A DNA stretch of 64,000 nt from a candidate division TM6 bacterium GW2011_GWF2_28_16 (GCA_001029715.1 CP011212.1:67407-131406), one strand, 5' to 3'. Shown: positions 2 to 56,972, counted from the first letter of the stretch. A program made the numbers and translations. Notes: generated from the sequence alone by a model not told the origin.

Positions 2-2224
2 GAGCAAAAGCAACCACTTTTTCAAGAATTTAGTTTTGTAAATAACGCTAAGAGCCAAATTGAAAAACTAATTGATCAAAAAATCAGAGGTCTTATTGAT
101 CACGATGAAGAGCTAGATTCAATTGCTCCTACGGAGTTAGAGCTAAAGAAGGCTTTGGAAATAAGTAGATTGCAGAGAATTCGCCAAAATAAGAAAAATA
201 AGGTTCAAAAAAAGCTTCAGAAAGCTGAAGTAGACAATGCTTGGGAATTAATTAAAGAGACCGATAAAGAACCAACAGAAGGGCATGAGAGCCAGGCTTT
301 TGATTCGGAACTTGGCAATAGAATTGAAGAGATCTTCTCTACTCAAAGAGGTTTTGATAAATCTAAGCGCCAAGAAGAAAATATTGTTCAAGGTAAAAAA
401 ATTATTAAAAAAAGCAAAAAAAGAAAATTCCTTTTTTGGCTTGGCAGCATTGGTTTTAGCCTTAGTTTTATTTTTTTACTCCTATTCTCTCTTTTCAATT
501 TAAGTCAAAAAACCTTGCAAAACCAACTCTACAACGTAATTAAAAATGGCGGAAATAATATAGAAAAGATTGATAAATCAGTTATTTATGGTCTTTTTAA
601 GTTTCAGCTTGCTCAATATCAAAAAGTTTCATCTGAAGAAAGCCTTAGTGAGGCATTAGATATAAAAAAACTAGCAGATGTCCTCTCAGCTCTTTCAGAA
701 ACTCAGCTGAAATACGAAGAGTCTAGCTATGATTTATATAAAAAAACTCTTGATGGGGGAGTTAAGTTGGAACAATCTTATGAAGATTTAACCAACTCAA
801 TTGATAAAAAAATTGTCGCTCAAAAAGAATTTAACGCCTATTTAATGGCTCTAAATTTAGATCTATATCAAGGGGAAGAGAAAAAAGTCTGGCAAAATAT
901 TCTTGAGGGAAATAAGGCAGCTTTGAGGGATTCCATTCAGGTTCAGCGATTTTTAACTCCGTTTAAAGAATTCATTCTACAGGAGGGAAGAGTCAACGTA
1001 TTAGTTTTATTCCAGGACAGCAATGAACTAAGATCTACGGGCGGATTTTTAACTGAGCTTGCTATTCTGAGCTTTGAAAATGCTTCTTTAATAGACAAAC
1101 AAATTCTTGATGTAAATGATTTAGATATGAGAACCTACGGACATAAAGATTCGAGTCAGGAAATTAAAGATTTATTGGGAGAAAATATTCTTTATTTGCG
1201 CGACAGCAATTGGCAAGTAGATTTCTCAAAGAGTAGCCAAGAGATTAAGTGGTTTGCTGAGCAAGTTAGTGGTTCACAGGTGGATTTAGTTTTAGCAATA
1301 AACAGCAAAACAATTATTAAATTATTGGATTCTCTAAGTGGAGTAGAGTTGGCAAATAATGTTTCAGTTAATGGGGCTAATTATTTGGAGAATCAGGAAA
1401 AAACTGCTTCTTCAGATTATAAGTCTATTAGTGATAAAAAATTTAATTGGCAATTTGTTAGCGCTTTATTCGAAAAGGTTTTTAGTCTGAATAAAGAACA
1501 ATTAATGCTTTTTGAAAAGGTTGCTATTAGCCAACTAGGTGAGCGAGAAATTTTGATACAAAGCGCTGACCAAAACTTGCAGAAAGCCATTGAAGCCAAC
1601 TCGTGGAGTGGAAAAAAAGTGGAACTTGTTTGCCCAGCAGAGTTTAAACAGGATAATTGTTTATTGGACTTTATTTTTCAGGTGGAAAATAATGTGGGGA
1701 TAAACAAAGTGAATCCATATATTAAGGAAACAATTGAACATAATCTTGGAATCAGTGAGCAATTTATTCGTCATAAACGTAAAATCACTTTCGAAAATTT
1801 AGCCAAAAGTGATACTTGGCCTCTAGGGACTTATCGAGATTACTTAAAGTTTTATCTCAACTCTCAAGCTAGTTTGGAAAAAATTGAAATAAATGGTCAA
1901 AAAATAGATGGGTCACGCATTAAAATAATAGATGGAGAAGATGGTAGAGAAATCGCCATTCTTCTAGAAATTCCCAAAGAAAGCAAGTTGGAGTTCACGA
2001 TTATTTATTTAGTTCCCAATCAAGTAAAGGCTCCTTTTTCTTATGTTTTCTTTGATCAAAAACAAGCCGGACTTTTTGATAAAAAGACTAGCTATAATAT
2101 TGTTTTTGATGAAAAGTTCAAACCTCAATTAATTGCTCCTCAGGCTAGCTATCAAGATAAAGTTATTCATTTCAACAATGCCAACTTAGATCACTTTCTT
2201 TTTGCCATTAATTTTAGTGAGTAA
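2..2224 (+). CDS. hypothetical membrane-anchored protein, 5' end probably outside the window (possibly DUF4012-like)
   Basis: Reading frame is open from the window edge to the stop at 2224. First in-window start-type codon is TTG at 155. One TM segment (FLFWLGSIGFSLSFIFLLLFSLF) followed by a large soluble domain. Motif LVLFQDSNELRSTGGF is reminiscent of DUF4012; no catalytic motif recognised. Confidence 0.5.
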   Translation, partial: EQKQPLFQEFSFVNNAKSQIEKLIDQKIRGLIDHDEELDSIAPTELELKKALEISRLQRIRQNKKNKVQKKLQKAEVDNAWELIKETDKEPTEGHESQAFDSELGNRIEEIFSTQRGFDKSKRQEENIVQGKKIIKKSKKRKFLFWLGSIGFSLSFIFLLLFSLFNLSQKTLQNQLYNVIKNGGNNIEKIDKSVIYGLFKFQLAQYQKVSSEESLSEALDIKKLADVLSALSETQLKYEESSYDLYKKTLDGGVKLEQSYEDLTNSIDKKIVAQKEFNAYLMALNLDLYQGEEKKVWQNILEGNKAALRDSIQVQRFLTPFKEFILQEGRVNVLVLFQDSNELRSTGGFLTELAILSFENASLIDKQILDVNDLDMRTYGHKDSSQEIKDLLGENILYLRDSNWQVDFSKSSQEIKWFAEQVSGSQVDLVLAINSKTIIKLLDSLSGVELANNVSVNGANYLENQEKTASSDYKSISDKKFNWQFVSALFEKVFSLNKEQLMLFEKVAISQLGEREILIQSADQNLQKAIEANSWSGKKVELVCPAEFKQDNCLLDFIFQVENNVGINKVNPYIKETIEHNLGISEQFIRHKRKITFENLAKSDTWPLGTYRDYLKFYLNSQASLEKIEINGQKIDGSRIKIIDGEDGREIAILLEIPKESKLEFTIIYLVPNQVKAPFSYVFFDQKQAGLFDKKTSYNIVFDEKFKPQLIAPQASYQDKVIHFNNANLDHFLFAINFSE

Positions 2225-7135: not shown

Positions 7136-7498
7136 TTACCAGTTTTTAGCTGATCCAGGGATGGTGAAGTTTTTAATAACTTCAAGACCGGTAAAATCGG
7201 AAATCAAATTAACGATAATAAATGAGGACAGAGCTAAAATAATACCAACAACTGCCATGGTAATTGTATTTTTAGATTTTTCTGTAGCCTGACTATTGCC
7301 ACCCATGATCATCATGTTAAAGGCTGCGTAGATAATCATTATGAAGCCAGCAATACCGAGAGCAGTCAGTGCAATTGAAAAAACATTGGCCAACATACAT
7401 CCAATTCCCTGTATGGTTGCTGTGCCATTATTAACACATCCTTCACTAATGTCTGACCAGGCTTGGGTTTGTGCGTAGGCTTGTTTGACGATTTGCAT
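7136..7498 (-). CDS. TrbC/VirB2-like T4SS pilin family protein (paralogue 1 of 7)
   Basis: Small protein with two hydrophobic helices separated by the short loop GGNSQATEKSKNT. Same architecture as the six upstream paralogues. Confidence 0.55.
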   Translation of the reverse strand: MQIVKQAYAQTQAWSDISEGCVNNGTATIQGIGCMLANVFSIALTALGIAGFIMIIYAAFNMMIMGGNSQATEKSKNTITMAVVGIILALSSFIIVNLISDFTGLEVIKNFTIPGSAKNW

Positions 7499-7520
7499 TT
7501 ATTTCTAGATTATATATTTA

Positions 7521-7548
7521 AAAAACCCGCTTTAAAAGCGGGTTTTTT
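7521..7548. terminator. rho-independent terminator (bidirectional palindrome)
   Basis: AAAAA-CCCGCTTT-AA-AAGCGGG-TTTTTT between two minus-strand pilin genes. Confidence 0.7.
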
Positions 7549-7569
7549 ATATTTTCCATAAAATAATGA

Positions 7570-7977
7570 TTATTTATTTGGATTATTGATGTCGCCGACA
7601 TTATTGAAAACGTCATTGAAGTCACCAAATCCTAAGAATTGGACAACTAGAGTAACTATAGCGTAAGAAGCAGCTACAATTACCAAGCCAATTACAGCGG
7701 AAGTGAGTTTGTTTCTAGCGCTTTCTGCTTTGGTTTTATCTCCGCCTGAAGTAATCCATTCGATGCCTCCCCAAATCATGTAGGCGAAAACTAAGAGGGC
7801 TGCAACGAGCATAACTACATTCAAGATAGAACTGAACATAGTACCAAAATTATTTGCATATCCCTTACCAGTGGTAATTGGTTGGATGTCAACTTCAGCC
7901 ATGGCCATAGAGGCTGTACTCAACATGGTACCCATAGCGGCTCCGGTAGCGAGGACGATTTTCTTTAATGATTTCAT
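7570..7977 (-). CDS. TrbC/VirB2-like T4SS pilin family protein (paralogue 2)
   Basis: Signal peptide (…TASMAMA/EV), then helix1, IWGGIEWITSGGDKTKAESARNKLTSAVIGLVIV, helix2. Conserved core shared with paralogues 3-5. Confidence 0.65.
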   Translation of the reverse strand: MKSLKKIVLATGAAMGTMLSTASMAMAEVDIQPITTGKGYANNFGTMFSSILNVVMLVAALLVFAYMIWGGIEWITSGGDKTKAESARNKLTSAVIGLVIVAASYAIVTLVVQFLGFGDFNDVFNNVGDINNPNK

Positions 7978-8044
7978 AATTTTTTCCTTTTTAATTACTA
8001 AATTAATTTATTATAAATACGATTATATCAAGTTTAGTCAACTT

Positions 8045-8383
8045 TTAATTAAAAGTCAAAACATCTATCCCCAAAAATCCTTCTAAGAGTAAGAAAATTG
8101 CAGTCACGGCGGCTAAAATAATTAGGCCAATAACGGCATTGCCAATTCTACTTCTGGCTTTTTCTAACTTGCCTGAATCACCTGCAGAGGTAATCCACTC
8201 AATTGCTCCCCAGATCAAAAAACCAAAAACTAGCACTGCTGCTAAAGTCATTACTGCGCTCATGATATTGCCAAAAAATAATCCAAAGCCACCATCACTG
8301 GAGTTGGCATATTCAGCACCTTGCAAACCTTGGCTTTGAGCTTCTCCAGCAATGTCTAATGTTAGAGCTATTTGTCTTGTCAT
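8045..8383 (-). CDS. TrbC/VirB2-like T4SS pilin family protein (paralogue 3)
   Basis: Core IWGAIEWITSAGDSGKLEKARSRIGNAVIGLIIL with two TM helices. Confidence 0.65.
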   Translation of the reverse strand: MTRQIALTLDIAGEAQSQGLQGAEYANSSDGGFGLFFGNIMSAVMTLAAVLVFGFLIWGAIEWITSAGDSGKLEKARSRIGNAVIGLIILAAVTAIFLLLEGFLGIDVLTFN

Positions 8384-8395
8384 ATTTTTTCGTTT

Positions 8396-8824
8396 TTAGT
8401 TATAAGTAGGCAGAGTTAATTTTAGTAAATCGAAGTTGTCGCCAAAGAAAATCTTACTAATAAAGCTAAGAATAGTGAAGGAGGCAACTAAAATAATTAA
8501 GCCAATCACGGCATTGGTTATTCTTTTTCTAGCATCTTCGGCTTTTTTACTATCAGAACCAGAGCTAATCCACTCAATTGCTCCCCAGATAAAATAGGCA
8601 ATTACAGCTAGTGCTCCCAAGTTAATACTAACCTTCCATAAATAAACTACGTAGTTAATGAATTTGCTGCCATCGGCGGCGCCAGTGTTCGTGCCTAATT
8701 CTCCAACTACAGGGTTTTCTATGGCAGCGTAAGCATTTGTGGCAAAAAATGAGAACATTACCAAAGAAAATAAACTGACAAAGATGGTGTTTTTATTTAG
8801 TTTCATATTTAAATTAAATATCAT
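8396..8824 (-). CDS. TrbC/VirB2-like T4SS pilin family protein (paralogue 4)
   Basis: Signal peptide plus core IWGAIEWISSGSDSKKAEDARKRITNAVIGLIIL. Confidence 0.65.
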   Translation of the reverse strand: MIFNLNMKLNKNTIFVSLFSLVMFSFFATNAYAAIENPVVGELGTNTGAADGSKFINYVVYLWKVSINLGALAVIAYFIWGAIEWISSGSDSKKAEDARKRITNAVIGLIILVASFTILSFISKIFFGDNFDLLKLTLPTYN

Positions 8825-9180
8825 TTAGCTACGCCTGGAATAATATTTTGAATTAAATCTCCAGGATTTAGGATGTCAACTCCGACTAAACTACCGATCA
8901 GGCCAATAATAGCATAGCTAGCTACGATTAAAATTATGCCCAATGTTCCCCAAATAAATCTATTTTTAGCTTTTTCTACCTTACTACTGTCTCCTCCTGC
9001 AGTCGCCCATTCAAAAGCTGCTAAAAATGAGAAAACCACAAAAAATAAAATAGCTAAAACGGTAATCGCTCCAATAATATCGCTAAGATACAATTCCAAA
9101 GAAGAGACAAAACCCTCATTGGTTAAACTTTCTGGAGCTCTTGCTTCGCTAACTGGTTGTATTGATCCAATGTCTGCCAT
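8821..9180 (-). CDS. TrbC/VirB2-like T4SS pilin family protein (paralogue 5)
   Basis: Core AAFEWATAGGDSSKVEKAKNRFIWGTLGIILIV with two TM helices. 4-bp overlap with paralogue 4. Confidence 0.6.
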   Translation of the reverse strand: MADIGSIQPVSEARAPESLTNEGFVSSLELYLSDIIGAITVLAILFFVVFSFLAAFEWATAGGDSSKVEKAKNRFIWGTLGIILIVASYAIIGLIGSLVGVDILNPGDLIQNIIPGVAK

Positions 9181-9181
9181 A

Positions 9182-9649
9182 TTAAGTACCTATCACTGTT
9201 GGTATTTGCGGATTAATAATATACGTTGCATCTCCAAAAACGAGCAAACTAATTACGCCAATAATTGTATATGCTGCAACAATCAGAAGCAGTCCGGTTA
9301 CGCTGAGTGATAATTTTTCGCCAATCTTGGCATAAGCCCCACTATCACCATTGGAAGAAACATAAGTAAAGCCTGCAAAGACAAAATTAAACATCACCCA
9401 AATTCCAGCAATAATCGAGGCAAACTTGATCATGTTAGAGATGAAAATAAGTAGGCCAATGCTGTTTGTTCCGTTAGACGCACTTTCGGCCTGTGTATTT
9501 AATTCTGCAACTCCTGCTGGTGCGTCAATTTTACCAAAGACACCCTCTGTTAGATTAGGAGTAGGAGTTACTGTTTGAGCAACAGCTAATTGATTGCTTG
9601 AAAATAAGAGCGCAAGGGTAAAAAGTAGACTTAAAAGAATTTTTTTCAT
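9182..9649 (-). CDS. TrbC/VirB2-like T4SS pilin family protein (paralogue 6, divergent)
   Basis: Signal peptide (…NQLAVA/QT), two TM helices, loop SSNGDSGAYAKIGEKLSLSVTGLLLIV. Confidence 0.55.
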   Translation of the reverse strand: MKKILLSLLFTLALLFSSNQLAVAQTVTPTPNLTEGVFGKIDAPAGVAELNTQAESASNGTNSIGLLIFISNMIKFASIIAGIWVMFNFVFAGFTYVSSNGDSGAYAKIGEKLSLSVTGLLLIVAAYTIIGVISLLVFGDATYIINPQIPTVIGT

Positions 9650-9679
9650 TTTATATTTTGATTATAAACCATTTATCTA

Positions 9680-10099
9680 TTAAAAACCCATATTAATGCC
9701 GGTTAGAAGTTGAATGATTTGCATAATCCAGTAAGCTGCAAACATAATAATAAAGCCAAGTACAGCAGAAGTCATGGTGGTTTTGGCTTTTTCCGCATCT
9801 TTTCCACCTCCTTGAATCATTGCAAATCCAGCGCCGACAATCATGACAAATAGAACTAAGCCCGCGCCGACAAAGAGTACTTTGACAATTAAATTTAGCA
9901 TGTCATCGGTACTATTAAAAACATCCTTGACTGGCGTGCCGTCTTTGAGAATGAGTTTCTCTCCCAGAGAAATTTCAACTTCTTCTACTTGTGCTGAGCT
10001 AGTAGCCCCAACGGCTAAAGCTAGAGGCGTTTTTATAAAAGAAAAATTAAAGACAAAAGCCGAGAAAAGAAGTAAAAATAATAAAAATTTGTTCTTCAT
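9680..10099 (-). CDS. TrbC/VirB2-like T4SS pilin family protein (paralogue 7, divergent)
   Basis: Signal peptide, two TM helices, loop MIQGGGKDAEKAKTTMTSAVLGFIIMF. Confidence 0.55.
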   Translation of the reverse strand: MKNKFLLFLLLFSAFVFNFSFIKTPLALAVGATSSAQVEEVEISLGEKLILKDGTPVKDVFNSTDDMLNLIVKVLFVGAGLVLFVMIVGAGFAMIQGGGKDAEKAKTTMTSAVLGFIIMFAAYWIMQIIQLLTGINMGF

Positions 10100-10152
10100 T
10101 GAAAATTATTATATTAGCTATATCGATATGTTTCTAGTGTAAAATAGAGCTA
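10100..10152. promoter_or_regulatory. short divergent promoter region between the pilin array (-) and the ECF sigma factor (+)
   Basis: 53-bp AT-rich intergenic spacer between two divergently oriented starts. No specific boxes assigned. Confidence 0.3.
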
Positions 10153-10713
10153 ATGCAAGATTTAACTCGTTTTGTTGGTTTCGACAATGAAGCAATTTTA
10201 GTGGAAGCCTTAAAGAATGGTAATGAATTGGCTGTCGAGTATTGGTTTAAAAAATATCGTCTTAAACTGAAAAAAATTGCTATTTTAAAAGTTCCTAGTC
10301 AAACGCAAGCTGCGGAAATTGTTCAAGAAACTTTCATTAATTGTCTACAAACCCTTAATTTATTTAAAGGTAATTCTTCACTTTTAACTTGGATGCAAAG
10401 CGTTATGCGTCATGAAATTGCTGACTTTTATCGCAAACGTTACGCAAAGAAATTTATTCAAACCATTCCTCTGAGTGATTTTCTTCTTGAACAGAACTAT
10501 AAAGATGCGGCGTCATCTGCAGAATTAGTAAGTCTGGTGCTTAAGAAAATGCTAAAAGAAAATCGAGAATTATTATTAAAAAAATATGTGGATTGTAAAA
10601 AAGTTAAAGATATTGCTTTCGAGATGGGTAATACCAGCAAAGCAGTTGAATCAAATTTGTTTAGAGCAAGACAAGAATTCAAGGCTTTGTGGTTAGAATT
10701 AGAAACAAAATGA
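10153..10713 (+). CDS. RNA polymerase sigma-70 factor, ECF subfamily
   Basis: Region-2-like VQETFINCLQTLNLF....LLTWMQSVMRHEIADFYRKR. Region-4 HTH VKDIAFEMGNTSKAVESNLFRARQEF. 186 aa. Confidence 0.8.
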   Translation: MQDLTRFVGFDNEAILVEALKNGNELAVEYWFKKYRLKLKKIAILKVPSQTQAAEIVQETFINCLQTLNLFKGNSSLLTWMQSVMRHEIADFYRKRYAKKFIQTIPLSDFLLEQNYKDAASSAELVSLVLKKMLKENRELLLKKYVDCKKVKDIAFEMGNTSKAVESNLFRARQEFKALWLELETK

Positions 10714-10904
10714 TAGAAAATAATTTTTTAAAGTTACTTAAAGATACTGCCAAAGAACAGAGTTATTTGGGTCAGGAAAAGCTAATTCCAGATCAACTAA
10801 GTGATCTGGCTAATTTTGTTGCCAATCATTTATGGCAAACGGCTTTGTTTTTAGCCTTTTTATCGACGATTTTATTAAATTTTTTAGCCACAATTAGACC
10901 ATGA
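10689..10904 (+). CDS. putative anti-sigma factor (single-pass membrane protein)
   Basis: 71-aa ORF overlapping the 3' end of the ECF sigma gene. Cytoplasmic N-terminus plus one C-terminal TM helix (WQTALFLAFLSTILLNFLATI). Call rests on position and architecture only. Confidence 0.4.
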   Translation: MVRIRNKMIENNFLKLLKDTAKEQSYLGQEKLIPDQLSDLANFVANHLWQTALFLAFLSTILLNFLATIRP

Positions 10905-11221
10905 AACATAAACAAAATAAATTTCTAATGATTTTTGACTCAATCATTTATTCCAGCGGACAAATGTTCCTTGGTTTGCTTTTGCATCCTTACCGCAGTA
11001 CTCAGCTTTTAGTTAAGAACAAGCTTTTATTACCATTTATTTTTTATCCTTTTTTAATTGCTTCCTTTTTTTATTTATTTATGCGAATTGATTTGATTTT
11101 GGGTTTTTACCAGAGTAACTTTTTCTTTAAATTTGCTTATCAAACGTTTTTATTCTTTTGTTTTTATTGGCAGATAGCTCTTTTTTATCTATGGTTTCGT
11201 TTTAGCAGGGTTTTTAATTAA
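10901..11221 (+). CDS. hypothetical membrane protein
   Basis: 106 aa with 3 predicted TM helices. Translationally coupled to the upstream ORF. Confidence 0.35.
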   Translation: MKHKQNKFLMIFDSIIYSSGQMFLGLLLHPYRSTQLLVKNKLLLPFIFYPFLIASFFYLFMRIDLILGFYQSNFFFKFAYQTFLFFCFYWQIALFYLWFRFSRVFN

Positions 11222-13237: not shown

Positions 13238-14329
13238 ATGTATCAACCGAAGTTTAAGATTACCAATCACTTACTTGCCTACATTTCTTCCATTGAATCC
13301 GCCAAAGCCCTAATCGATCATTCTGCTCTCGTTCCTTCTTGGGAAGCAAAGTTTCGTGATGAAGCAATGATGAGGAGTGTCCATTTTGGTACTCACATCG
13401 AGGGAAATGAACTTAGTGCTGATCAAGCTGGCAAAGTTGTTCAGTTAAAAAATACCAGCAATCCGCAAATAGTGGTTGATCAAACTGGGATTATTGCTAG
13501 AGATAGAGATATTCAAGAAGTAATTAATTATCGCAACGTAATTGCTTGGATTGATCAGCGCCCAATTAAAAAATCTGGCGAAGATCTTAATTTAGAAACT
13601 CTAATGAGTTTACATAAATTAACCATGCAAAAACTCTTACCAGAGGAACAAATTGCTGTTTTTCGTGAAAAACAAGTCATCGTCAGAGGAGCGGCTAGTG
13701 GAAGCGTGGTTTTTCGTCCACCGGTTTCAGTAGAAGTGCCATTCTTAATTGAAGATTTCTTCACTTGGTTAAATAGTCCAGAAGCTTTAGAACTGCATCC
13801 GGTTTTTAGAGCTGCTATTACTCATTACAGCTTGGTTTATATTCATCCTTTTGTTGAAGGCAATGGTCGAGTGGCCAGGGCTTTTGCTACTTTTGTGCTT
13901 TACAGCTCTGGTTACGATTTTAAGCGTTTTTTTTCAATTGAAGAATATTTTGACAGCGATGTTGAAGCTTATTATCAGGCTCTTTTATCAGCTCAACAGA
14001 GCAGTGATAAAGACCTAACATACTTTTTGGAATATTTTGCTTATGGTTTGGCTTTGGAAATCGACAAGGTTAAACAAAAAGTTTTAAAGCTTTCTCAAGA
14101 TCTGAAAATCCAGCGTGAACTTGGTCAACAAGTAGCTTTATCTGAACGTCAGATCATTATTTTAGAAATTCTACAGAATCAGGGGCAGATGACGTCTGAT
14201 GATGCTCAAAAAGCTTTGCCCAATGTTTCTGTCGATACGATTTTGCGCGACTTAAAAGATTTAATCAGTAAAGGTGTGGTACAAAAACGAGGTGTCACTA
14301 AGGGTGTGAGTTACACTTTAATTAACTAA
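13238..14329 (+). CDS. Fic/DOC family protein with C-terminal winged-helix domain
   Basis: Canonical Fic motif HPFVEGNGRVARAF. C-terminal wHTH-like segment. Confidence 0.85.
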   Translation: MYQPKFKITNHLLAYISSIESAKALIDHSALVPSWEAKFRDEAMMRSVHFGTHIEGNELSADQAGKVVQLKNTSNPQIVVDQTGIIARDRDIQEVINYRNVIAWIDQRPIKKSGEDLNLETLMSLHKLTMQKLLPEEQIAVFREKQVIVRGAASGSVVFRPPVSVEVPFLIEDFFTWLNSPEALELHPVFRAAITHYSLVYIHPFVEGNGRVARAFATFVLYSSGYDFKRFFSIEEYFDSDVEAYYQALLSAQQSSDKDLTYFLEYFAYGLALEIDKVKQKVLKLSQDLKIQRELGQQVALSERQIIILEILQNQGQMTSDDAQKALPNVSVDTILRDLKDLISKGVVQKRGVTKGVSYTLIN

Positions 14330-14346: not shown

Positions 14347-16206
14347 ATGTTTTTCAGAGATTTTTCTATTTATTTGCAGAAAATTGAGGCAGTTTCTGCT
14401 CGTTTGAGCATTACTGCTATTTTAGCTGATCTTTTTAAGGATCTATCAGTTGGCCAGCAAGATCCAGACGAAATTGTTTTAGCCACTTATCTAATGCAGG
14501 GGAGTTTAGTACCCTCTTATTTATCTTTAGAATTTCAAATGTCAGAAAAAATGTTGATTAAAACTTTGGCAAGAGTTCAGGGCAAAGATAATAATTTTAA
14601 ATCAAACAATTCAGATAATCTTTTTGCAGAAGTGGATCAAAATTTATTTGAGGATCATTCTGTTTTAGAGAAAAAGTTGAGTGTCGAATATAAAAAAATA
14701 GGTGACATTGGTGAACTTTTTGAAAAAGTTTTAACCGAATTTTCATCTGATAAAACTTTGAGTGAGCAGCTTTCAATCACTCAAGTCCATCAATTCTTAA
14801 GTGAACTGGCCACTACTTCTGGACTCGGCTCTCAGGACAAAAAAATTGAATTACTTGCCAATTTACTACAAAAATTAGATCCTCTTTCTGCTCGGTACAT
14901 CAGTCGTATTATTTTAAGCAAAATGCGTCTTGGTTTTTCGACTATGACTCTGATAGATTCACTTTCTTTCGTCAAAAATAATGATAAAAGTGATAGCGCC
15001 AACTTAGAAAGAGCTTTTTTTAAAAAAGCAGATTTAGGTAAGTTGGCTAAGGCTTATTTATTAGATCATAGAGACTTAAATAGTGATGAATTATTGAAAA
15101 CTTATCAAGTGGAACTGGGTGTTCCAGTTTTGCCTGTGCTTTGTCAACGTCTCAATAGCGCTCAAGAAATTATTGAAAAAATGGGTGAAGTGCTTGCAGA
15201 GCCAAAATATGATGGTTTGAGAGTGCAGATTCATATCAACAAGGAAAAATTTGCTGACAGTGGTTTGCTTTATAAAGCTTTTACTAGAAATTTAGAAGAT
15301 GTTACTCATATGTTTCCAGAGTTGGCGGAGGTGGCCTCGGCATTAAAGGTCAAAAATTGCATTTTAGACACTGAGGCAATTGGAATAGATAAAAAAACCG
15401 GCAAGTTTTTATCTTTTCAAGAAACAATTCAGCGTAAGCGTAAACACGACATCTCAGCCAAAGCTCTAGAGGTGCCAATTTGTTTTTATGCTTTTGATTT
15501 GCTTTTGTTAGATGATCAGGTTTTGATTGATCGAGATTTGCTGGCTAGAAAAGCCAAATTAAATGAAGTTTTGAAAGATTCGGAATTTATCAAAAAAACT
15601 GAATATTCTCTGATTAGTGATCCGAGTGAATTAAAATCTTTTCATGAGCAACAACTTAATTTGGGTTTAGAGGGTGCCGTCATGAAACAGGGGAGTTCAG
15701 CCTATATTTCTGGTAGAAAATCTTGGCGTTGGGTCAAAATTAAAGAAGAAGAAGGTAGTCAAGGTAAACTCTCTGATACCATTGATTGCTTGATGCTGGG
15801 TTATTACCTTGGCAAAGGTAAAAGACAAGTTTTTGGAATAGGCGCTTTATTAGTGGGAGTTCTGGATAAAGACAAAGATGGCAATTTAGTGGTTAGATCT
15901 CTTTCCAAAATTGGAACTGGTTTGACTGATGAGCAGTTTCGTGAAGTTAAAAACTTAGCGGATAAATATCCAAGTAAAGATAATCAAAAACCAACTTTGT
16001 ATGATGTCGATAAAAATTTATTTCCTGATGTTTGGCTTGAGCCGCGTTTGGTTTTAGAAATTGCTGCTGATGAAATTAGCAAATCGCCAATTCACTCTGC
16101 AGGAGTAGCTTTGCGTTTTCCAAGATTAGTTCAAATTCGTTACGATAAAAGTTTCGAAAATGCTACTACTCTTGAGGAGTTGTCTTCAATTCATATTGCT
16201 GGCTAA
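14347..16206 (+). CDS. lig: ATP-dependent DNA ligase (LigI-like, three-domain)
   Basis: Motif I AEPKYDGLRVQIH (KxDGxR). Downstream adenylation and OB-fold motifs (EGAVMK.., WVKIK). 619 aa with an N-terminal DNA-binding domain. Confidence 0.85.
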   Translation: MFFRDFSIYLQKIEAVSARLSITAILADLFKDLSVGQQDPDEIVLATYLMQGSLVPSYLSLEFQMSEKMLIKTLARVQGKDNNFKSNNSDNLFAEVDQNLFEDHSVLEKKLSVEYKKIGDIGELFEKVLTEFSSDKTLSEQLSITQVHQFLSELATTSGLGSQDKKIELLANLLQKLDPLSARYISRIILSKMRLGFSTMTLIDSLSFVKNNDKSDSANLERAFFKKADLGKLAKAYLLDHRDLNSDELLKTYQVELGVPVLPVLCQRLNSAQEIIEKMGEVLAEPKYDGLRVQIHINKEKFADSGLLYKAFTRNLEDVTHMFPELAEVASALKVKNCILDTEAIGIDKKTGKFLSFQETIQRKRKHDISAKALEVPICFYAFDLLLLDDQVLIDRDLLARKAKLNEVLKDSEFIKKTEYSLISDPSELKSFHEQQLNLGLEGAVMKQGSSAYISGRKSWRWVKIKEEEGSQGKLSDTIDCLMLGYYLGKGKRQVFGIGALLVGVLDKDKDGNLVVRSLSKIGTGLTDEQFREVKNLADKYPSKDNQKPTLYDVDKNLFPDVWLEPRLVLEIAADEISKSPIHSAGVALRFPRLVQIRYDKSFENATTLEELSSIHIAG

Positions 16207-21099: not shown

Positions 21100-22278
21100 A
21101 TGTCATTTTTTAAGAAAAATATTCAAATGCAAAATGATGAGCAAGCAATTGCTTCTCGTCAAGAAGACTTGCTAAAGAATTGGAAAAAGGCTGATTTTAA
21201 GCAGCTTTTTTCTATCAACAAAGCACTGAGCAAAGCCAACCAATGCAATTGTGAAAATATGATTGGCGCAGTTACTTTACCGGTTGGTTTGGCTGGTCCA
21301 GTTAAAGTTATTTTAGAAGACAGCGAAACTGAATATTTTGTGCCCCTAGCAACTAGTGAGGGCGCTTTAGTTGCTAGCGTAAATAGGGGTTTAAAAGCAA
21401 TTAATCAAGCTGGCGGAGCTCAAGTTTTTGTCAAAAATGTTGGCATGACTAGAGCTCCAGTTTTTGCTTTTGAAAATGGCAAAGAAGCTTTTGCTTTTGC
21501 TACTTATTTGGAAGAAGCCAAAACTTTGGCGGAAATAAAAAAGATTACTGAACTAAGCAGCGATCACCTCCATTTTAAAAATCTCCAGAGTTTTGTCAGA
21601 GGTCGTAATGTCTATGTACGTTTTAGTTTCTTCACTGATCAAGCCATGGGCATGAACATGGTTACCCTTGCCCTTCAGAAATTGTGGGAAGAATTTTTGA
21701 GTAATTATCAGGGTATAAAAATGTTGGCTTTATCTAGTAATGTTTGTACTGATAAAAAATCTTCATTTATCAATCAATTACTTGGTAGAGGCTATAGTGC
21801 TCAGGCTGAGGTTTTTTTAAGTGAAGCAATTTTGGAAAATATTCTAAAAACTAGTTCTAAGGCTTTGTTTAAAACCCATCAAAGCAAAAATCAAATTGGT
21901 TCAAATCTAGCCGGGACTTTTTCTAACAATATGCAATTTGCCAATGTGGTGGCAGCTTTTTATATGGCTACTGGTCAAGATTTGGCTCATATCACTGAGG
22001 CAAGTCAAGGTAATACAATCGTCGAGGAAACTGAAGAAAAAGGCCTTTATTTTGCAGTTAACTTACCAGATTTGCCGCTTGGCAGTGTTGGTGGTGGAAC
22101 TAACTTGCCCGCTCAAAAAGAGTTGCGCAACTTAATTCATCAAAGTAACGAAGACCTAGGCTCAGTGCAACTAGTTAGTATTTTAGCGACTGGCGTTTTG
22201 GCAGCGGAAATTTCTGGTTTGGCAGCTCTTAGTAGTAATAGCCTAGCCCAGGCCCACCAAAGATTGGCAAGAAAATGA
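21100..22278 (+). CDS. hmgA: hydroxymethylglutaryl-CoA reductase, class I
   Basis: ENMIGAVTLPVGLAGPV, LATSEGALVASVNRG, DQAMGMNMV and GSVGGGT motifs of the class-I catalytic domain. Confidence 0.85.
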   Translation: MSFFKKNIQMQNDEQAIASRQEDLLKNWKKADFKQLFSINKALSKANQCNCENMIGAVTLPVGLAGPVKVILEDSETEYFVPLATSEGALVASVNRGLKAINQAGGAQVFVKNVGMTRAPVFAFENGKEAFAFATYLEEAKTLAEIKKITELSSDHLHFKNLQSFVRGRNVYVRFSFFTDQAMGMNMVTLALQKLWEEFLSNYQGIKMLALSSNVCTDKKSSFINQLLGRGYSAQAEVFLSEAILENILKTSSKALFKTHQSKNQIGSNLAGTFSNNMQFANVVAAFYMATGQDLAHITEASQGNTIVEETEEKGLYFAVNLPDLPLGSVGGGTNLPAQKELRNLIHQSNEDLGSVQLVSILATGVLAAEISGLAALSSNSLAQAHQRLARK

Positions 22279-28185: not shown

Positions 28186-28261
28186 GGTGCGTGTGCTAGG
28201 ACTCGAACCTAGAACCGCCAAGGTATAAGCTTGGAGCTCTAACCAATTGAGCTACACACGC
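28186..28261 (-). tRNA. tRNA-Ile, apparent anticodon UAU
   Basis: Manual cloverleaf from the reverse complement: acceptor GCGTGTG/CACACGC, D-arm GCTC-AATTGGTTA-GAGC, anticodon stem CCAAG/CTTGG with loop CTTATAC (U33-UAU-A37), T-arm CTAGG-TTCGAGT-CCTAG. Discriminator A then CC; terminal A not encoded. Confidence 0.75.
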
Positions 28262-34789: not shown

Positions 34790-35917
34790 TTAATTCTTTA
34801 AAATTTCGCTAATTTTTTTAATTTTATTATACCAACTATTTTCAATGGCTAATTGTCTAGCCTCTTTTCCATTTTTTTCAATCCAGCTATTTTTTTCAAT
34901 TGTTTCTATATGCTTTTTCCATTCTTGAGCATTTTTTCCTATTTTAATGAATTTTTTGAATTTATTATCAGTTAGTTCTTTTATTTCTGTAGAAATTATT
35001 GGTTTTTCAAAATAAAGATACTCAAAAGTTTTCATTGGATAGCAATTAGCATTAAATGGATAACTGACGTCATAGGGTATTATGCAGAGGTCAAATTGAG
35101 ATATTAATTGAGGAATTTTATCTTTTTTTTGAGATTCAATTTTTTTTACATTGGAGAAAGATAAAAATTTTTTAATTCGTTTTCTTTTATTTTCTTTTAT
35201 TTTTAAGTCTCTTTTAATTGGTCCAATAAAAGTGAAATTAGTTTCTGGCATTAACTTGACTAAATTTATCATTAGATCGTAGTCAATGCGGTCGCTTATG
35301 GCTCCAATAAAACCAACGTTTATTTTCTTCTTCTTTGAGAATTTTATGGGCGATTTTTCAAACATTTGCAAATCAAAGCCCTGAGACACTAAATGAAGCT
35401 TTTTTTTATTATATTTTGCCACTTCTTTTTTTAGGGTCTTTGAATTAACAAAAATATAGTTTGCTTTATCTAAATTTGTTTTATATTTTTTGAAATCAAA
35501 CCAATCAACTATATCTAAGATCAGCTCTCTTTTTTTCAAGTTATGCTTTTCTATTTCCACTGTAAGATCAAAGATCCACTCATATGTTTTTTTATTTATC
35601 GATAGAAAGAAAATAATAAACTCAGTAATAAAATAATTAATTTTGTTATTTAGTTTTGAAAATAAATCTTTTGTAAAGAGAAATTTAATTTTCTTTGGAA
35701 AAAAGTAAAAATATTTATAATAAAAAATGTCATTTTTTTTACTTAATAAAAAGAATTCTTGTTGAAAAAGCTTTTTCCAACTCAAGGAGAAATTTTTTTC
35801 AATAACTAAGACTTTATTATTATTTTGTGTTAAGATCCGAATAGTTTGTAATATGAAATCGCAAATTTCTTGAGGATTTTCATGAGTGGGAACAATAATA
35901 AAACTATTTCTAAGCAT
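34790..35917 (-). CDS. putative glycosyltransferase (GT-B, GT4-like C-terminal domain)
   Basis: C-terminal half (INVGFIGAISDRIDYDLMINLV...FIGP..) resembles the Glycos_transf_1 domain. N-terminal half is divergent. Confidence 0.4.
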   Translation of the reverse strand: MLRNSFIIVPTHENPQEICDFILQTIRILTQNNNKVLVIEKNFSLSWKKLFQQEFFLLSKKNDIFYYKYFYFFPKKIKFLFTKDLFSKLNNKINYFITEFIIFFLSINKKTYEWIFDLTVEIEKHNLKKRELILDIVDWFDFKKYKTNLDKANYIFVNSKTLKKEVAKYNKKKLHLVSQGFDLQMFEKSPIKFSKKKKINVGFIGAISDRIDYDLMINLVKLMPETNFTFIGPIKRDLKIKENKRKRIKKFLSFSNVKKIESQKKDKIPQLISQFDLCIIPYDVSYPFNANCYPMKTFEYLYFEKPIISTEIKELTDNKFKKFIKIGKNAQEWKKHIETIEKNSWIEKNGKEARQLAIENSWYNKIKKISEILKN

Positions 35918-37435
35918 CGACTATATATTAGCAAAGTTTTTGATTTATTTTTTATCAAAAAAAATGCTTTTTCTAAACAAGAAAAAATTTCTATACTTAT
36001 ATCTATTTTGTTTTTAGTTTCAGTTTTCTTCATTCCAAACAATAAATTTTTATTCATGGTTACTGCAACTTACATACTTTCTTTATTTATCGTGAACAAG
36101 TCAATTTATGAAACCGTCTTTTATGCTTTTTTACCACTGAGTTTAGTTTTAGTTGGTCAAGGTTATTCTTATATTGCTATTCCTGGTGAAGCAATAAAAT
36201 CAGAGGGCTATGAAGAGGGAAAAATTTTAAATTATTTTTTTTCTCCATTTATTGTTTTGTTGATTTTAATTAGTTTTTTATTTTTTGTTAATTTAACTCA
36301 AAAACTTTTTAGAAAAAAATCTTTTATTAAATTTAAGCCATTTATTATTTCTTTTTTATTCTTTTTTCTTTTTTCTTTTTTTTCTGCAATTAGCAATGAT
36401 TCTTTTCCAAAATTGTCCTTTCTTTACTTTTTAAATGATTTTCTATTTTTTATTTCTTGTTTTTTTATTGCGCTGTTTATTTCAGATAGCAAGGAAAAAA
36501 CAAATAAAATGAATTTGATTCTATTAAATTTGATAATTTTATCTGTTTTTTTAGGGATGGTTGTGATTTTTCAATTTATAAACAAATCACCCTTAGGAAT
36601 AATAGCTGAAATGAGCCACGAAGTCCCATTTTTTGGAGGTGGAGCAGATGAAGACAGTTCTTTATTTAGACCGATAGGAATTTTTACTCACGCTAATATT
36701 CTGGCTAACTATTTAAGCAATTTATTTTTTTCTATATTTTTATTGAAAGCTTATTTAATAGAAAAAAAAGAATTACTCATTAATAAAAAGTTTATCAATA
36801 TTGGATTGCTTCTCATTTTTATTTCTATATTCTCAACTCTCTCAAGAGCAGTTTATTTAGCTTTGTTTTTATCAGCATTGATTTATGTGTTTATTTTTAG
36901 AAAAGAAATATCCGCAAGCGGTAAGAAAATAGTTAAAAAAATATTGAAAGTTAAATATTTAATTTTTCTTTTACCTTTGATGTGGAATGTAGCTGTAAGA
37001 ATAATTTACAGTTTCAATAGCTTTTATCAAGAGGGAGGGGTTGGAGTTCGGGAAAAACTAACTATAGAGAGCTTAGCTCTTTTAAGAAGAAATTTTTTTT
37101 ATGGAGTGGGAACTGGCATGTTTATCCCATCTTTGTTTAGGGAAAATCCCATTGGAATCATAAGCGAATTTCCGGAGTCAGTTCATAATGGTATTTTATT
37201 AAATTTAATTGAAAATGGGTTTCTTTCTTTTTTCTTCTTTTTGATGGTTTATTTTTTATTTTTCAAAGCTTTAATAGCTTTAAAAGCTAATAAGAAAATC
37301 ATCGTAATTTCTTTTCTAGCAATTTTTTCCCAATTAGTAATAAGTTTCTTTCATCCATTCACAAACACCGTTACTCTATATACTTTTATTATGATTTTGA
37401 TAATATATGATCTATATGCAATTGAAAAAAAATAA
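35870..37435 (+). CDS. O-antigen polymerase/ligase family membrane protein (Wzy_C-like)
   Basis: ~12 TM helices and a periplasmic loop with HNGILLNLIENGFLSFFFF (Wzy_C H....E.G motif). The true start may be an internal Met. Confidence 0.55.
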   Translation: MRIFMSGNNNKTISKHRLYISKVFDLFFIKKNAFSKQEKISILISILFLVSVFFIPNNKFLFMVTATYILSLFIVNKSIYETVFYAFLPLSLVLVGQGYSYIAIPGEAIKSEGYEEGKILNYFFSPFIVLLILISFLFFVNLTQKLFRKKSFIKFKPFIISFLFFFLFSFFSAISNDSFPKLSFLYFLNDFLFFISCFFIALFISDSKEKTNKMNLILLNLIILSVFLGMVVIFQFINKSPLGIIAEMSHEVPFFGGGADEDSSLFRPIGIFTHANILANYLSNLFFSIFLLKAYLIEKKELLINKKFINIGLLLIFISIFSTLSRAVYLALFLSALIYVFIFRKEISASGKKIVKKILKVKYLIFLLPLMWNVAVRIIYSFNSFYQEGGVGVREKLTIESLALLRRNFFYGVGTGMFIPSLFRENPIGIISEFPESVHNGILLNLIENGFLSFFFFLMVYFLFFKALIALKANKKIIVISFLAIFSQLVISFFHPFTNTVTLYTFIMILIIYDLYAIEKK

Positions 37436-45868: not shown

Positions 45869-46730
45869 AGGATATGGATATTGGGGTAAAAAGATTGAAT
45901 CAGTGTTACTTAATTATGGTGAATTATGCATCTTTGACAAGAATAACAAAATTTCTCCATGCCTGTCTACAGCACTAGAAGACTTACTAGATGACAAACT
46001 AATTGAAAATTGTTTCATTGCTACTCCTGAAGATACCCATTTTGAATTAGTGAAAGAATGTCTTTTGAAAAATAAAAATGTTTTTGTAGAAAAACCATTA
46101 ACTTTAAAAGAATCTGAAGCTAAAAAATTGATTGATTTGGCAAAGAAAAAAAAGAAACTTCTTTTTATAGATTCTATTTTTTTATATGATCCATTTTTCA
46201 ATGAATTGAAAAAAATGGTACAGCTAGGAAAAATTGGAAATATAAATAAAATAGAATCAATTAGATTTAGTGTTGGATTTGATAAAAAAAATATCTCAGT
46301 CACCGATGACCTAGCAACGCATGATTTTTACATTTTTGAAAAACTTTTATCTCAAAAAATAAATCTGAAATCAATTAAAACAGATCTAAAAAATAATTTT
46401 CAGGAGGCTTTTGCTAATTATGAATCCGAAAATGGAGTTCAAATGGAATCCATTTATAGTTGGATCAGAAAAAATCCGCAAAGAAAAATGACTGTTTACG
46501 GAACAGAAGGAAAAATTATTTGGGACAAGAACTTTGATTATTTAAAAATAGAAAAAGCAACAGGTCTAGAAAAAAAATATATTAAGGAAGAGCTCAAGTC
46601 TCCTTTGGAAAAAATGATTGATGATTATTTTTCTTTACGCAGTAGCAAAGAAAAATTTCCAGATCTTCTTAGTCACCAAAGGTATGTTTGCATGCTAGAA
46701 TGTTTAAGAAATGAATGTACCCCTTTTTGA
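45828..46730 (+). CDS. Gfo/Idh/MocA family NAD(P)-dependent oxidoreductase (WbpB-like)
   Basis: N-terminal Rossmann LLIGYGYWGKK. EKPL motif (FVEKPLTLKESEAKKL). Paired with the DegT aminotransferase. Confidence 0.6.
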   Translation: MFRTCLIFMKNLLIGYGYWGKKIESVLLNYGELCIFDKNNKISPCLSTALEDLLDDKLIENCFIATPEDTHFELVKECLLKNKNVFVEKPLTLKESEAKKLIDLAKKKKKLLFIDSIFLYDPFFNELKKMVQLGKIGNINKIESIRFSVGFDKKNISVTDDLATHDFYIFEKLLSQKINLKSIKTDLKNNFQEAFANYESENGVQMESIYSWIRKNPQRKMTVYGTEGKIIWDKNFDYLKIEKATGLEKKYIKEELKSPLEKMIDDYFSLRSSKEKFPDLLSHQRYVCMLECLRNECTPF

Positions 46731-47835
46731 TCTTAAAAGACAAAACCAAAAATTAAAAAAAGAATTTCTCAAATCAATATCCATAGCAATTGATGAGAGT
46801 GAATTTGTCCACGGTGAAGCTATAAAAGAATTTGAAAAAAATTTTGCAAATTATTGCAATAGTAAATATTGTTTGGCTGTAAATTCTGGAACGACGGCTT
46901 TAATTCTCGCTCTTAAAGCAATAGGGGTTAGCAGTGGTGATGAGATTATTACCACTCCATGTACCTTTTCAGCAACATCAGATGCGGTCGTTTGGCTTAA
47001 TGCCAAACCAGTTTTTGTGGATGTTGATGAAAAAACAGGCAATATAGATCCCTCAAAAATAGAAGCTAGAGTTAACAAGAAAACAAAAGCAATCTTAGTT
47101 GTTCATTTGTATGGCATTCCTTGTGAGATGGATGAAATAAATAGAATAGCAAAAAAACATAAACTTAAAGTGGTAGAAGATGCTTCTCATGCTCATGGAT
47201 CTGAATATAAAGGTAGGAAGGTGGGAGGCTTAGCGGATATTTCTTGTTTTTCTGCTTATCCATCAAAAACATTAGGTTCTTTTGGTAATGCAGGGATGAT
47301 TGTTTCCAATAATAAAAAATTTATGGAAAAAGCTAGAGAGTTTGCTGACAATGGTGTTTTTGATCCGAAGAAAAAATATTTTCACAACCTTTGTGGAATT
47401 AATGGCTTAATCAATAATTTTCAGGCCATTTCATTGATATTAAAGTTAAAAGAAATTGATTCAGTTATAAATAAAAGGTTAAAAATAGCAAAAACTTATA
47501 ATCAGCAATTACAAGAGTTAGGTCTTAAGGGAATGTTCTGGGACGATAAAAAGATTAAGCCGTCTTTGTATGTTTATAGTTTTCAATATAAAGATAGAGA
47601 TAAATTAAGAGAATTTTTAACGAGCAGGGGTGTAGGCAACTCAGTTTACTATCCAATTCCTTTACATTTACAAAAATCGTTTTTACCTTTGTCTTATAAA
47701 AAAGGCGATTTTCCGATAGCAGAAAGATTTTTTAAACAAACAATTAGCCTGCCTTTGTATTCTGGTTTGTCAAAGAAAGAGGTAGACTATGTTCTCAGCT
47801 CTCTTGTAACTTTTTTTAAAAAACAATATCATTAA
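46711..47835 (+). CDS. DegT/DnrJ/EryC1/StrS family PLP-dependent sugar aminotransferase (WbpE-like)
   Basis: Fold-type-I aminotransferase with Lys-containing SAYPSKTLGSFGNAGM region and typical N-terminus (PLFDLKRQNQKLKKEF). 374 aa. Confidence 0.85.
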   Translation: MNVPLFDLKRQNQKLKKEFLKSISIAIDESEFVHGEAIKEFEKNFANYCNSKYCLAVNSGTTALILALKAIGVSSGDEIITTPCTFSATSDAVVWLNAKPVFVDVDEKTGNIDPSKIEARVNKKTKAILVVHLYGIPCEMDEINRIAKKHKLKVVEDASHAHGSEYKGRKVGGLADISCFSAYPSKTLGSFGNAGMIVSNNKKFMEKAREFADNGVFDPKKKYFHNLCGINGLINNFQAISLILKLKEIDSVINKRLKIAKTYNQQLQELGLKGMFWDDKKIKPSLYVYSFQYKDRDKLREFLTSRGVGNSVYYPIPLHLQKSFLPLSYKKGDFPIAERFFKQTISLPLYSGLSKKEVDYVLSSLVTFFKKQYH

Positions 47836-56474: not shown

Positions 56475-56972
56475 ATGAAAAAGGTTTTTTTTATTTTTGC
56501 TCTATTTAGTCTTTTTATTTTTTCCATTTATTTTTTCTATCGAAGCTATGCTTTTATTTTTTTTGTAAAAGATAGACAAGTAATTAAGCTAGTTTTAAAA
56601 GAGAATTTTTTTGCTAGTAAAGAAAAGGAACTTTTAGTTGAAGTAGTTAGAACCAAACAGAGTACCACGGAGGGTCTTTCTAATCGTAAAAGTTTAGAAA
56701 GTGTAAACGGTCAAAAGATCGACGGTCTTCTTTTTATTTTTCCAGAGAAAACAGTTCGTCGATTTTGGATGAAAGAAATGCTATTTAATATTGACATCTG
56801 TTGGCTAAACAACTTGGATTTTCTTTCCTGTCAGAGATCAGCTCAGCTTCCTTCACCAGGTGAAGACTTAAAAATTTATAGCTCCAATTCAGACTCTAAT
56901 GTAGTTCTAGAAACCAACCCAAATCGATTGAGCGATGATGATCTCAAACTAAAGCTCTTCTTCCAGTGGTAA
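56475..56972 (+). CDS. DUF192 family protein
   Basis: N-terminal signal/TM, then LLVEVVRT..STTEGLSNRKSL...GLLFIFPEKTVRRFWMKEMLFNIDICWL......VLE pattern typical of DUF192 (COG1430). Confidence 0.5.
   Translation: MKKVFFIFALFSLFIFSIYFFYRSYAFIFFVKDRQVIKLVLKENFFASKEKELLVEVVRTKQSTTEGLSNRKSLESVNGQKIDGLLFIFPEKTVRRFWMKEMLFNIDICWLNNLDFLSCQRSAQLPSPGEDLKIYSSNSDSNVVLETNPNRLSDDDLKLKLFFQW

Follow-up and report, generated by a model that had tools for sequence, protein, structure and literature searches.

Patescibacteria constitute a sizeable fraction of bacterial diversity, and they apparently subsist on host cells. Tandem series of small pilin-like genes have been described in these organisms: 441 'VirB2 arrays' of 2-11 genes were reported in 383 Patescibacteria assemblies, notably among Microgenomatia and Saccharimonadia, with a within-array identity of 25 % on average and 54 % at most, and a host-adaptive versatility was speculated upon (Quinonero-Coronel et al. 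2025, PMC12102498). In the same survey, a relaxase was absent from most Patescibacteria type IV secretion system (T4SS) clusters. In Ca. Southlakia epibionticum ML1, the T4SS cluster includes a series of six pilins, which proved essential (Wang et al. 2023, PMC10633639), and a 2025 review regarded a T4SS pilus in these monoderms as an intriguing possibility. The T4SS and its pilin series are thus known to be essential in one tested species, and we found no paper resolving what these arrays build. Here, we analysed an array of seven pilin-like genes located at positions 7136-10099 of a 64,000-nucleotide stretch of DNA (hereafter the window, with positions counted from its first letter) deposited as candidate division TM6 bacterium GW2011_GWF2_28_16 (GCA_001029715.1, CP011212.1:67407-131406), a genome that belongs to Microgenomatia. 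Identical arrays are found in GCA_000991725.1 (Ca. Pacebacteria bacterium GW2011_GWF1_36_5) and GCA_003543755.1. We consider it somewhat better than an even chance that the seven proteins of this array are non-redundant parts of a single heteromeric pilus-like conduit belonging to an origin-proximal T4SS, with the second gene, P2, providing the major subunit.

The genes were named P1 to P7, P1 having the lowest window coordinates and P7 being the first gene of the array, which is read on the minus strand. An initial annotation, made from the sequence alone, had proposed seven consecutive minus-strand genes of 112-155 aa, and the open reading frames (ORFs) retrieved here coincide exactly with this placing. 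A hidden Markov model (HMM) derived from the family and run over the 64-kb window returned these seven ORFs and no others (E 5e-32 to 6e-44), so that the cluster is not a chance pattern. All seven proteins also matched PF18895 (T4SS_pilin; gathering cutoff of 26.6 bits), i.e. the 'T4SS pilin' family of the candidate phyla radiation (CPR) to which they had been tentatively assigned. P1 to P5 scored above this cutoff and P6 and P7 below it; the latter two were joined to the family by the locus-derived HMM (E 1.9e-34 and 5e-32) and by alignment.

In the order of the array, P7 (9680-10099, 139 aa, 20.4 bits against PF18895) and P6 (9182-9649, 155 aa, 23.1 bits), the latter having the longest N-terminal ectodomain, are followed by P5 (8821-9180, 119 aa, 34.4 bits), P4 (8396-8824, 142 aa, 34.8 bits) and P3 (8045-8383, 112 aa, 34.2 bits). 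P2 (7570-7977, 135 aa) has the top PF18895 score of the seven (35.4 bits), and P1 (7136-7498, 120 aa, 28.5 bits), probably a transcription unit by itself, diverges most from the other paralogues. The annotated 4-bp overlap between two paralogues is indeed present, between P5 and P4 (8821-8824), the remaining intergenic gaps ranging from 1 to 71 nt. From P6 through P5 and P4 to P3 the spacings are 1, -4 and 12 nt, and P5-P4-P3 are tightly coupled in translation. The core motif that had been attributed to four paralogues fits P2, P3 and P4 well, and P5 only loosely.

The label 'TrbC/VirB2-like' fared less well. The sole match to TrbC/VirB2 (PF04956) was that of P4, at 13.5 bits (E=0.083) against a gathering cutoff of 27.9 bits. 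When two alignments of the array family were compared by hhalign with eight authentic VirB2/TrbC proteins, probabilities of 0.6 % and 0.9 % were obtained, i.e. no similarity; this reference profile consisted of eight annotated plasmid genes of the mating-pair formation type T (MPF_T), its seed being a VirB2 sequence with a 99 % match to real VirB2. With a sequence profile of the seven paralogues, all PDB chains were searched and no pilin was returned, only a spurious match to a G protein-coupled receptor (E=1.5). Six of the seven proteins gave sub-threshold matches (E 2e-7 to 5e-3) to NCBIfam NF045849, the Mbov_0395-family pilin-like conjugal transfer protein of Mycoplasma integrative and conjugative elements (ICEs). 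The scores were 16-30 bits, with the best for P2 (30.3 bits), and all lie under the curated 40-bit cutoff; the array proteins thus appear to be relatives of this family and not equivalogs. Finally, the holin-like alternative raised in the initial annotation was examined against PHROGs holin and phage families, which gave no match except to one family of unknown function (E=0.009). Identity as a holin or phage small membrane protein was consequently rejected, the neighbouring genes being housekeeping genes.

Hydropathy profiles of all seven proteins display two long hydrophobic helices and a short loop containing 2-5 K/R residues (net charge 0 to +2). The N-terminal region measures 27-65 aa, the first transmembrane helix (TM1) ~32 aa, the loop 13-15 aa, the second helix (TM2) ~27 aa and the C-tail 4-18 aa. 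For P2, the AlphaFold2 model is a hairpin with helices at 43-75 and 80-113 (pLDDT ~84-93). The two-helix hairpin architecture described in the initial annotation was thus recovered throughout the array, and by the positive-inside rule an N-out/C-out topology with a cytoplasmic loop is predicted. The uniform presence of a signal peptide was not recovered: signal-peptide-like N-termini with AxA motifs, whose cleavage is predicted only, occur in four of the seven proteins, i.e. P2 (Ala-rich, AMA/EV), P4 (AYA/AI), P6 (AVA/QT) and P7. P1, P3 and P5 have none even when their ORFs are extended to the maximum. Among orthologs, an N-terminal hydrophobic segment was seen in 0/21 P3 and 1/21 P5 proteins, and the N-terminus of P3, devoid of a signal peptide, is itself conserved (MTRQIALTLDIAGEA). 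P1 begins with MQIVKQAYAQT, in which the AxA-Q motif is kept, with a stop codon directly upstream; a signal peptide is missing from P1 in this clade, and a full one is present in more distant P1 orthologs. The N-terminal ectodomain of P1 carries two conserved Cys.

In order to compare the array with those of other genomes, one genome per species was scanned, yielding 42 related loci. A recurrent order emerged, in which a sigma factor gene is followed, in divergent orientation, by P7, P6, P5, P4, P3, P2 and P1, usually then by UppS, Nudix and ValRS genes. The P7-to-P1 order was monotone in 31 of the 35 loci holding at least five pilin ORFs, and all seven orthogroups were present in 25 of the 42 loci, most of the others being truncated at contig ends. 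Mean identity was 50 % between proteins at the same position in different genomes, versus 24 % between different positions within one genome. The best match elsewhere was the protein at the same position in 0.9-1.0 of comparisons, with a lower rate for P3 (0.65-0.78) because P3 is close to P2, no other paralogue being nearer to P2 (the two share 55 % identity over 80 aa). Even the divergent P1 has orthologs at the same array position, with 44-80 % identity. In the tree, the P6 ortholog clade comprises 24 of 25 leaves and the P7 clade is fully pure (24/24). Traits specific to a position are conserved as well, among them whether a signal peptide is present and, for P1, the Cys pair. The seven genes hence appear to be ancient one-to-one orthologous lineages, kept in a fixed order in about 40 species genomes. 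Departures from the seven-gene plan were few: the P1 ortholog of locus L008 is 255 aa long, with a Cys-rich C-terminal extension of ~135 aa, and P6 has a tandem duplicate in L019 and L023.

Among orthologs, identity is 43-48 % in exposed regions versus 59-64 % in the core, so the exposed parts are less conserved and not hypervariable. Selection was assessed pairwise, rather than with site models, against the nearest divergent strain (L006), which alone was usable for dN/dS as dS was saturated against the species-level relatives L007 and L012. The dN/dS ratio was 0-0.19 per gene. By region, the N-terminal part stood at 0.19, and TM1, loop, TM2 and C-tail at 0.02-0.06 (0.05 for the C-tail); comparison of loops with helices thus gave no diversifying selection, each gene and region being at 0.19 or less. 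P2 is the most conserved paralogue, with a loop 85 % identical among orthologs and a dN of 0. Synonymous divergence was uneven along the array (dS of 0.64 at P6 vs 0.12 at P5), and the peak at P6 may be a footprint of recombination. No long tracts of DNA identity were found between paralogues, the longest similarity covering 57-61 nt at 69-79 % identity. Taken together, the fixed orthology, the low dN/dS and the lack of shared tracts argue against recent duplication, gene conversion and antigenic variation, and they indicate seven genes that are probably old, individually maintained and non-redundant.

The regulatory elements of the array were recognised as sequence signals, their functions being predicted ones; those given below are on the minus strand. 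The P3-P2 spacer holds an extended -10 promoter, TGATATAAT (8022-8030), and a cTTGaTATAAT motif is conserved there in most loci. Upstream of P2 lies a Shine-Dalgarno-like AAAGGA (7985-7990); the 6-nt Shine-Dalgarno AAGGAG was found in 19/20 P2 orthologs, the other six genes having none or a weak one. The intrinsic terminator announced between the first two paralogues corresponds to a hairpin located 3' of P2 (7516-7552, about -18 kcal/mol), composed of an A-tract, a GC stem and a U-tract; as it is palindromic, it is potentially bidirectional. A hairpin followed by a T-run occurs after P2 in 27/37 loci, and since its stem differs between lineages (CCCGC/GCGGG, CCTCC/GGAGG, CCCCC/GGGGG, CCCTC/GAGGG), it is the structure, and not the sequence, that is conserved. 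P2 stands out as the likely major subunit, being served by an extended -10 promoter of its own, a strong Shine-Dalgarno sequence and a conserved terminator, and being also the most conserved of the seven and the closest to the family consensus.

Promoter-like boxes also precede the first and last genes. A TATAAT -10 box lies 10 nt upstream of the P1 ATG (7509-7514), as expected of a short-leader or leaderless promoter; in 26/37 loci, a TATAAT-like box was found no more than 35 nt ahead of P1, versus 11 % in a coding control. A second TATAAT -10 box (10108-10113) precedes the P7 ATG by 8 nt; it falls within the 53-bp spacer that separates P7 from the divergent sigma gene. Such boxes stand 8-11 nt upstream of the ATG for P7, P6 and P1, which suggests that their transcripts would have very short leaders. 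The same divergent spacer contains TATTTTACACTAGA (10133-10146), which is conserved across closer relatives; on the opposite strand, it resembles a TG-extended -10-like element for the sigma gene.

We then considered the link between the array and T4SS genes. The initial annotation had stated that no VirB4 or VirB6 was adjacent, which is true inside the window: neither was found among its large ORFs, which encode Wzy-type ligases, PGK, HMG-CoA reductase, a major facilitator superfamily transporter, a DegT aminotransferase and a DUF4012 protein. It does not hold beyond the left edge. The locus was extended leftward with contig L057, anchored on the L25 gene (window position = L057 position - 7590), and the gene order to the left of the array was found to be VirB4, dnaA, dnaN, rpmH, rnpA, yidD, yidC, jag, RNase H, DUF4012, L25, a 152-aa gene, ValRS, Nudix and UppS, then P1 to P7. 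The VirB4 gene (L057:1-1147; PF01935, PF19044, PF12846) ends ~6.4 kb before window position 1, and its product has homologues that several sources name VirB4/TraC-type ATPases. It is followed by dnaA (L057:1258-2814), ~4.8 kb to the left of the window start, and by dnaN (L057:3123-4232), so that dnaA-dnaN lie between VirB4 and the array. With 13.6 kb and 14 genes between VirB4 and P1, the association is not at the level of an operon.

This linkage is nevertheless conserved. The VirB4-oriC-array order is kept in relatives (L060 and L061), at VirB4 identities of 84 % and ~70 %, and it holds where P2 is only ~49 % identical (the locus abutting L034). Genes upstream of VirB4 were viewed in relatives only, as the homologue search had not returned the VirB4 of the source genome itself; in the one with the 84 % identical VirB4, they encode a 1096-aa protein, a 137-aa single-TM protein, a PrgI/VirB3-like protein and a TrsD-like protein. 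No pilin-family protein was found among these upstream genes, and no polytopic VirB6-like protein was seen beside VirB4 in this relative, the 1096-aa neighbour having two TM-like segments. The array thus appears to be part of a split T4SS gene set, the pilins and the T4SS core flanking the presumed replication origin. A 977-aa DUF4012 protein (window 155-2224, plus strand; full length L057:6881-9814) is located between the oriC block and the array in all relatives examined.

In the reading that we favour, each PF18895 protein would be a two-helix membrane hairpin whose termini lie outside and whose K/R-rich loop lies inside. Four of the subunits would enter the membrane through Sec signal peptides, and P1, P3 and P5 through N-tail insertion. 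Together, the seven would co-assemble into one heteromeric pilus-like conduit, possibly emerging as an extracellular filament, whose construction would depend on VirB4 and be carried out by the chromosomal, origin-proximal Patescibacteria T4SS, with its PrgI/VirB3-like, TrsD-like and VirB4 genes across dnaA-dnaN. P2 would be the abundant major subunit, and P7 to P3 and P1 would be accessory (minor) subunits made in few copies, each serving at its own position, for example in initiation, at the tip or as an adaptor. Of the functional ideas put forward in the initial annotation, the multi-subunit filament is the one that fits the evidence. If the subunits are fixed and non-redundant, with one likely major, the question moves from variability to the architecture of a seven-part assembly; P2 would be expected to dominate, each gene to be individually required and the proteins to co-purify with VirB4 and TrsD.

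Natural fusions bear on this proposal. In an exhaustive search, many of the top matches were single chains with 2-15 pilin modules, which we call 'polypilins' (P0241, P0245, P0251, P0280 and P0248); no mention of them was found in the consulted literature on these arrays. In P0241, six TM1-loop-TM2 modules stand behind a single signal peptide. In P0248, module 1 scores best against the P3 orthogroup and module 2 against that of P2, revealing a P3-P2 fusion in array order. In distant Microgenomatia, giant pilins directly follow P1 (L042:10589-13543 and L044:11053-13797) and have a signal peptide and a ~830-aa ectodomain, with a pilin module at the C-terminal end (family HMM E 5e-18 and 3e-17). 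Fusions and giant pilins support both a joint function and the N-out topology, and they also leave room for a bundle of membrane helices. At other distant loci, large secreted proteins were observed after P1, some with an SLT-like (VirB1-type) region (E=8.5e-4 in L037; motif in L038).

A bolder form of the proposal takes the array to specify a heteromeric VirB2-like assembly in which all seven subunits are obligatory, P2 being the major one and each of the other six a dedicated minor one. Its composition would have remained unchanged throughout a broad Microgenomatia clade, and in other lineages it would be covalently fused into polypilins. No characterised T4SS is known to follow such a major/minor pilin logic, and where VirB6 is undetectable the assembly may also form the membrane channel. 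We put this forward tentatively and, on balance, rather doubt it.

Alternatively, the seven hairpins could form a membrane-embedded translocon or stalk, i.e. a fixed heteromeric bundle of 14 TM helices in the cytoplasmic membrane, forming or lining the T4SS channel and possibly replacing the polytopic VirB6. Two facts from the literature weigh in this direction, namely that monoderm T4SSs are normally devoid of pili and that VirB6 homologues are 'scarce' in Microgenomatia. In addition, the relative inspected upstream of VirB4 showed no polytopic VirB6-like protein beside it, fused chains that carry 2-15 modules behind one signal peptide resemble polytopic membrane proteins, the nearest curated family comes from ICEs of wall-less Mycoplasma, and a fixed stoichiometric set under purifying selection fits a defined complex. 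However, the high-expression signature specific to P2 suggests an unequal stoichiometry, typical of a polymer with one major subunit. The N-terminal ectodomains of 30-65 aa, the ~830-aa ectodomains of the giant pilins and the Cys-rich C-terminal extensions point to external display. Reviews deem a pilus plausible for the essential Saccharibacteria array, and imaging has shown a tube-like conduit, 8.6 nm wide, that joins a Patescibacterium to its host and may or may not be made of such proteins. Overall, we judge the translocon unlikely, while giving it serious consideration.

A diversification mechanism (antigenic or receptor variation) had also been suggested in the initial annotation. The array would then be a repertoire of interchangeable pilin variants, of which one or a few are expressed at once, in relation to antigenic variation, phage evasion or host-range switching. 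VirB2 paralogue families are known in Bartonella and Anaplasma (cited in PMC12102498) and resemble the array in having several tandem VirB2-type genes per genome. Paralogues are only 22-55 % identical, and conservation is lowest in the exposed parts at the N- and C-termini; these traits, together with the several internal promoter-like sites that could permit differential expression, the uneven dS peaking at P6 and the P6 tandem duplicates of L019 and L023, are what a variant repertoire could produce as well. Unlike the Bartonella and Anaplasma families, however, the copies of the array are ancient, fixed in order, under purifying selection and without substrates for recombination: orthology is one-to-one over ~40 species, dN/dS does not exceed 0.19 even in exposed regions, and no identical DNA tracts are available for gene conversion. 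Conserved position-specific traits, including the missing signal peptide of P3 and P5, together with the tight translational coupling of P5-P4-P3 and the covalent fusion of modules in other genomes, run counter to interchangeable variants too. We therefore regard the diversification mechanism as very improbable and retain the heteromeric conduit.

The most constant immediate neighbour of the array, even where other flanks are rearranged, is a gene for a sigma-70 factor of the extracytoplasmic function (ECF) type (10153-10713, plus strand), divergent from P7 (Sigma70_r2/r4_2; TIGR02937, 58 bits). It adjoins the array in 31/33 loci when judged by gene order, and in 27/33 when a strict criterion of distance is applied. 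An ECF-type promoter was sought upstream of P7 and not seen, only housekeeping-type TATAAT boxes being present there. Downstream of the sigma gene, two small membrane-protein ORFs (10689-11221, plus strand), of 71 aa with a C-terminal TM and of 106 aa and polytopic, are called as genes in all near-identical contigs; the 71-aa product is possibly anti-sigma-like. That the seven proteins are T4SS-unrelated, small two-TM envelope proteins (holin-like, bacteriocin/immunity or envelope-stress) controlled by this sigma factor would agree with the constancy of this neighbour, the position of the array outside the VirB4 operon, a Pfam name that is an annotation and not a tested function, and a VirB2 homology that is not demonstrable, but it is scarcely credible in view of the absence of a PHROGs holin/phage match and of an ECF-type promoter upstream of P7, the chromosomal, origin-proximal housekeeping context with its conserved VirB4/TrsD/PrgI linkage, the PF18895 genes beside virB4 in many other Patescibacteria, the matches to an ICE pilin-like family and the essential homologous series inside the S. 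epibionticum T4SS cluster (PMC10633639).

The initial annotation had also pointed out a T4SS-type ATPase at 57678, described as the only one. The gene is present (57678-60020, plus strand, 780 aa; TrwB_AAD_bind, DUF87, TraG-D_C); it is of the VirD4/TraD coupling-protein type, as its best NCBIfam matches are TraD/VirD4 families and its VirB4 match is limited to the P-loop (E=0.003). Homologues of the type IV coupling protein (T4CP) are near-universal in Patescibacteria and rarely close to virB4, and this coupling-protein-like ATPase is a possible partner of the array. Its gene overlaps by 8 nt the preceding one (56966-57685, plus strand), which encodes a 239-aa acidic low-complexity protein without family match, and the pair (56966-60020) is set among cell-wall-related genes (GH3, DUF192, GDSL lipases).

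Several other features of the window were recorded. Its only tRNA gene is a tRNA-Ile with anticodon TAT (UAU) (28186-28261, minus strand), an uncommon bacterial way of reading AUA. An HMG-CoA reductase gene (21100-22278, plus strand; Pfam E=2e-102) represents the mevalonate pathway in this reduced CPR genome, and an ATP-dependent DNA ligase of archaeal/eukaryal type with DNA_ligase_A_N/M/C domains (14347-16206, plus strand) lies beside a Fic-domain protein (13238-14329, plus strand). Between ~32000 and 50200, GC content is 26-30 % versus ~35 % elsewhere; the presence in this island of two Wzy_C O-antigen-ligase-like membrane proteins (35870-37435 and 47839-50139) and of a DegT aminotransferase (46711-47835) points to a probable surface-glycan locus.

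When compared with known systems, the array shares with the VirB2/TrbC/TraA conjugative pilins of diderm T4SSs (Agrobacterium T-pilus, F-pilus) two helices and a short basic loop, a predicted N-out/C-out topology, an association with VirB4 and, in some copies, a predicted leader peptide. It differs from them by the lack of detectable sequence homology, by seven distinct subunits (three without signal peptides) instead of one VirB2 plus VirB5, by a monoderm host and by not being adjacent to virB3/virB4.

Type IV pili and type II secretion pseudopili have a major/minor pilin organisation. The likeness to them is one of functional analogy only, and lies in one separately and strongly expressed subunit gene (P2, as predicted) accompanied by several paralogues that are conserved, non-redundant and, as predicted, co-transcribed at a low level. 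The fold and assembly are unrelated, the single N-terminal helix, the class III signal peptide and the PilB-type ATPase of those systems all being absent here. As to the Mycoplasma ICE protein (Mbov_0395 / ICE_MMCAP2_0565), six of the seven paralogues align over nearly the whole 80-position model, which links the family to genuine monoderm conjugation systems. In the ICEs, however, the gene is single-copy and on a mobile element, whereas seven chromosomal copies are present here.

The closest likeness is with the published Patescibacteria VirB2 arrays, which belong to the same PF18895 family and consist of the same tandem divergent copies (mean identity of 24 % and maximum of 55 % here). They also share the class, Microgenomatia being rich in arrays, and a chromosomal, origin-proximal, MPF-FATA-like T4SS with VirB4, TrsD and PrgI. 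Unlike them, the present array lies outside the T4SS operon, 14 housekeeping genes including dnaA-dnaN separating it from VirB4. In the part of Table S3 of PMC12102498 that was examined, VirB4, TrsD, T4CP and other rows are present for the source genome and no VirB2 row was found, probably because a fragmented assembly separates the array from VirB4; every PF18895 row in that part is flagged as near virB4. The 'striking expansion' perceived in the initial annotation is thus of a kind already described, arrays of 2-11 such genes being published for 383 assemblies (PMC12102498), and the locus is a real, well-resolved, ordinary-for-CPR example. Published work on arrays includes neither the conservation of order and orthology, nor a selection analysis, nor an expression signature for P2. 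To this work, our analysis would add a fixed orthologous order, purifying selection, the signature of P2 as a putative major subunit, a hidden VirB4 linkage and natural fusions, and for this clade it disfavours the host-adaptive versatility speculated upon for the arrays at large.

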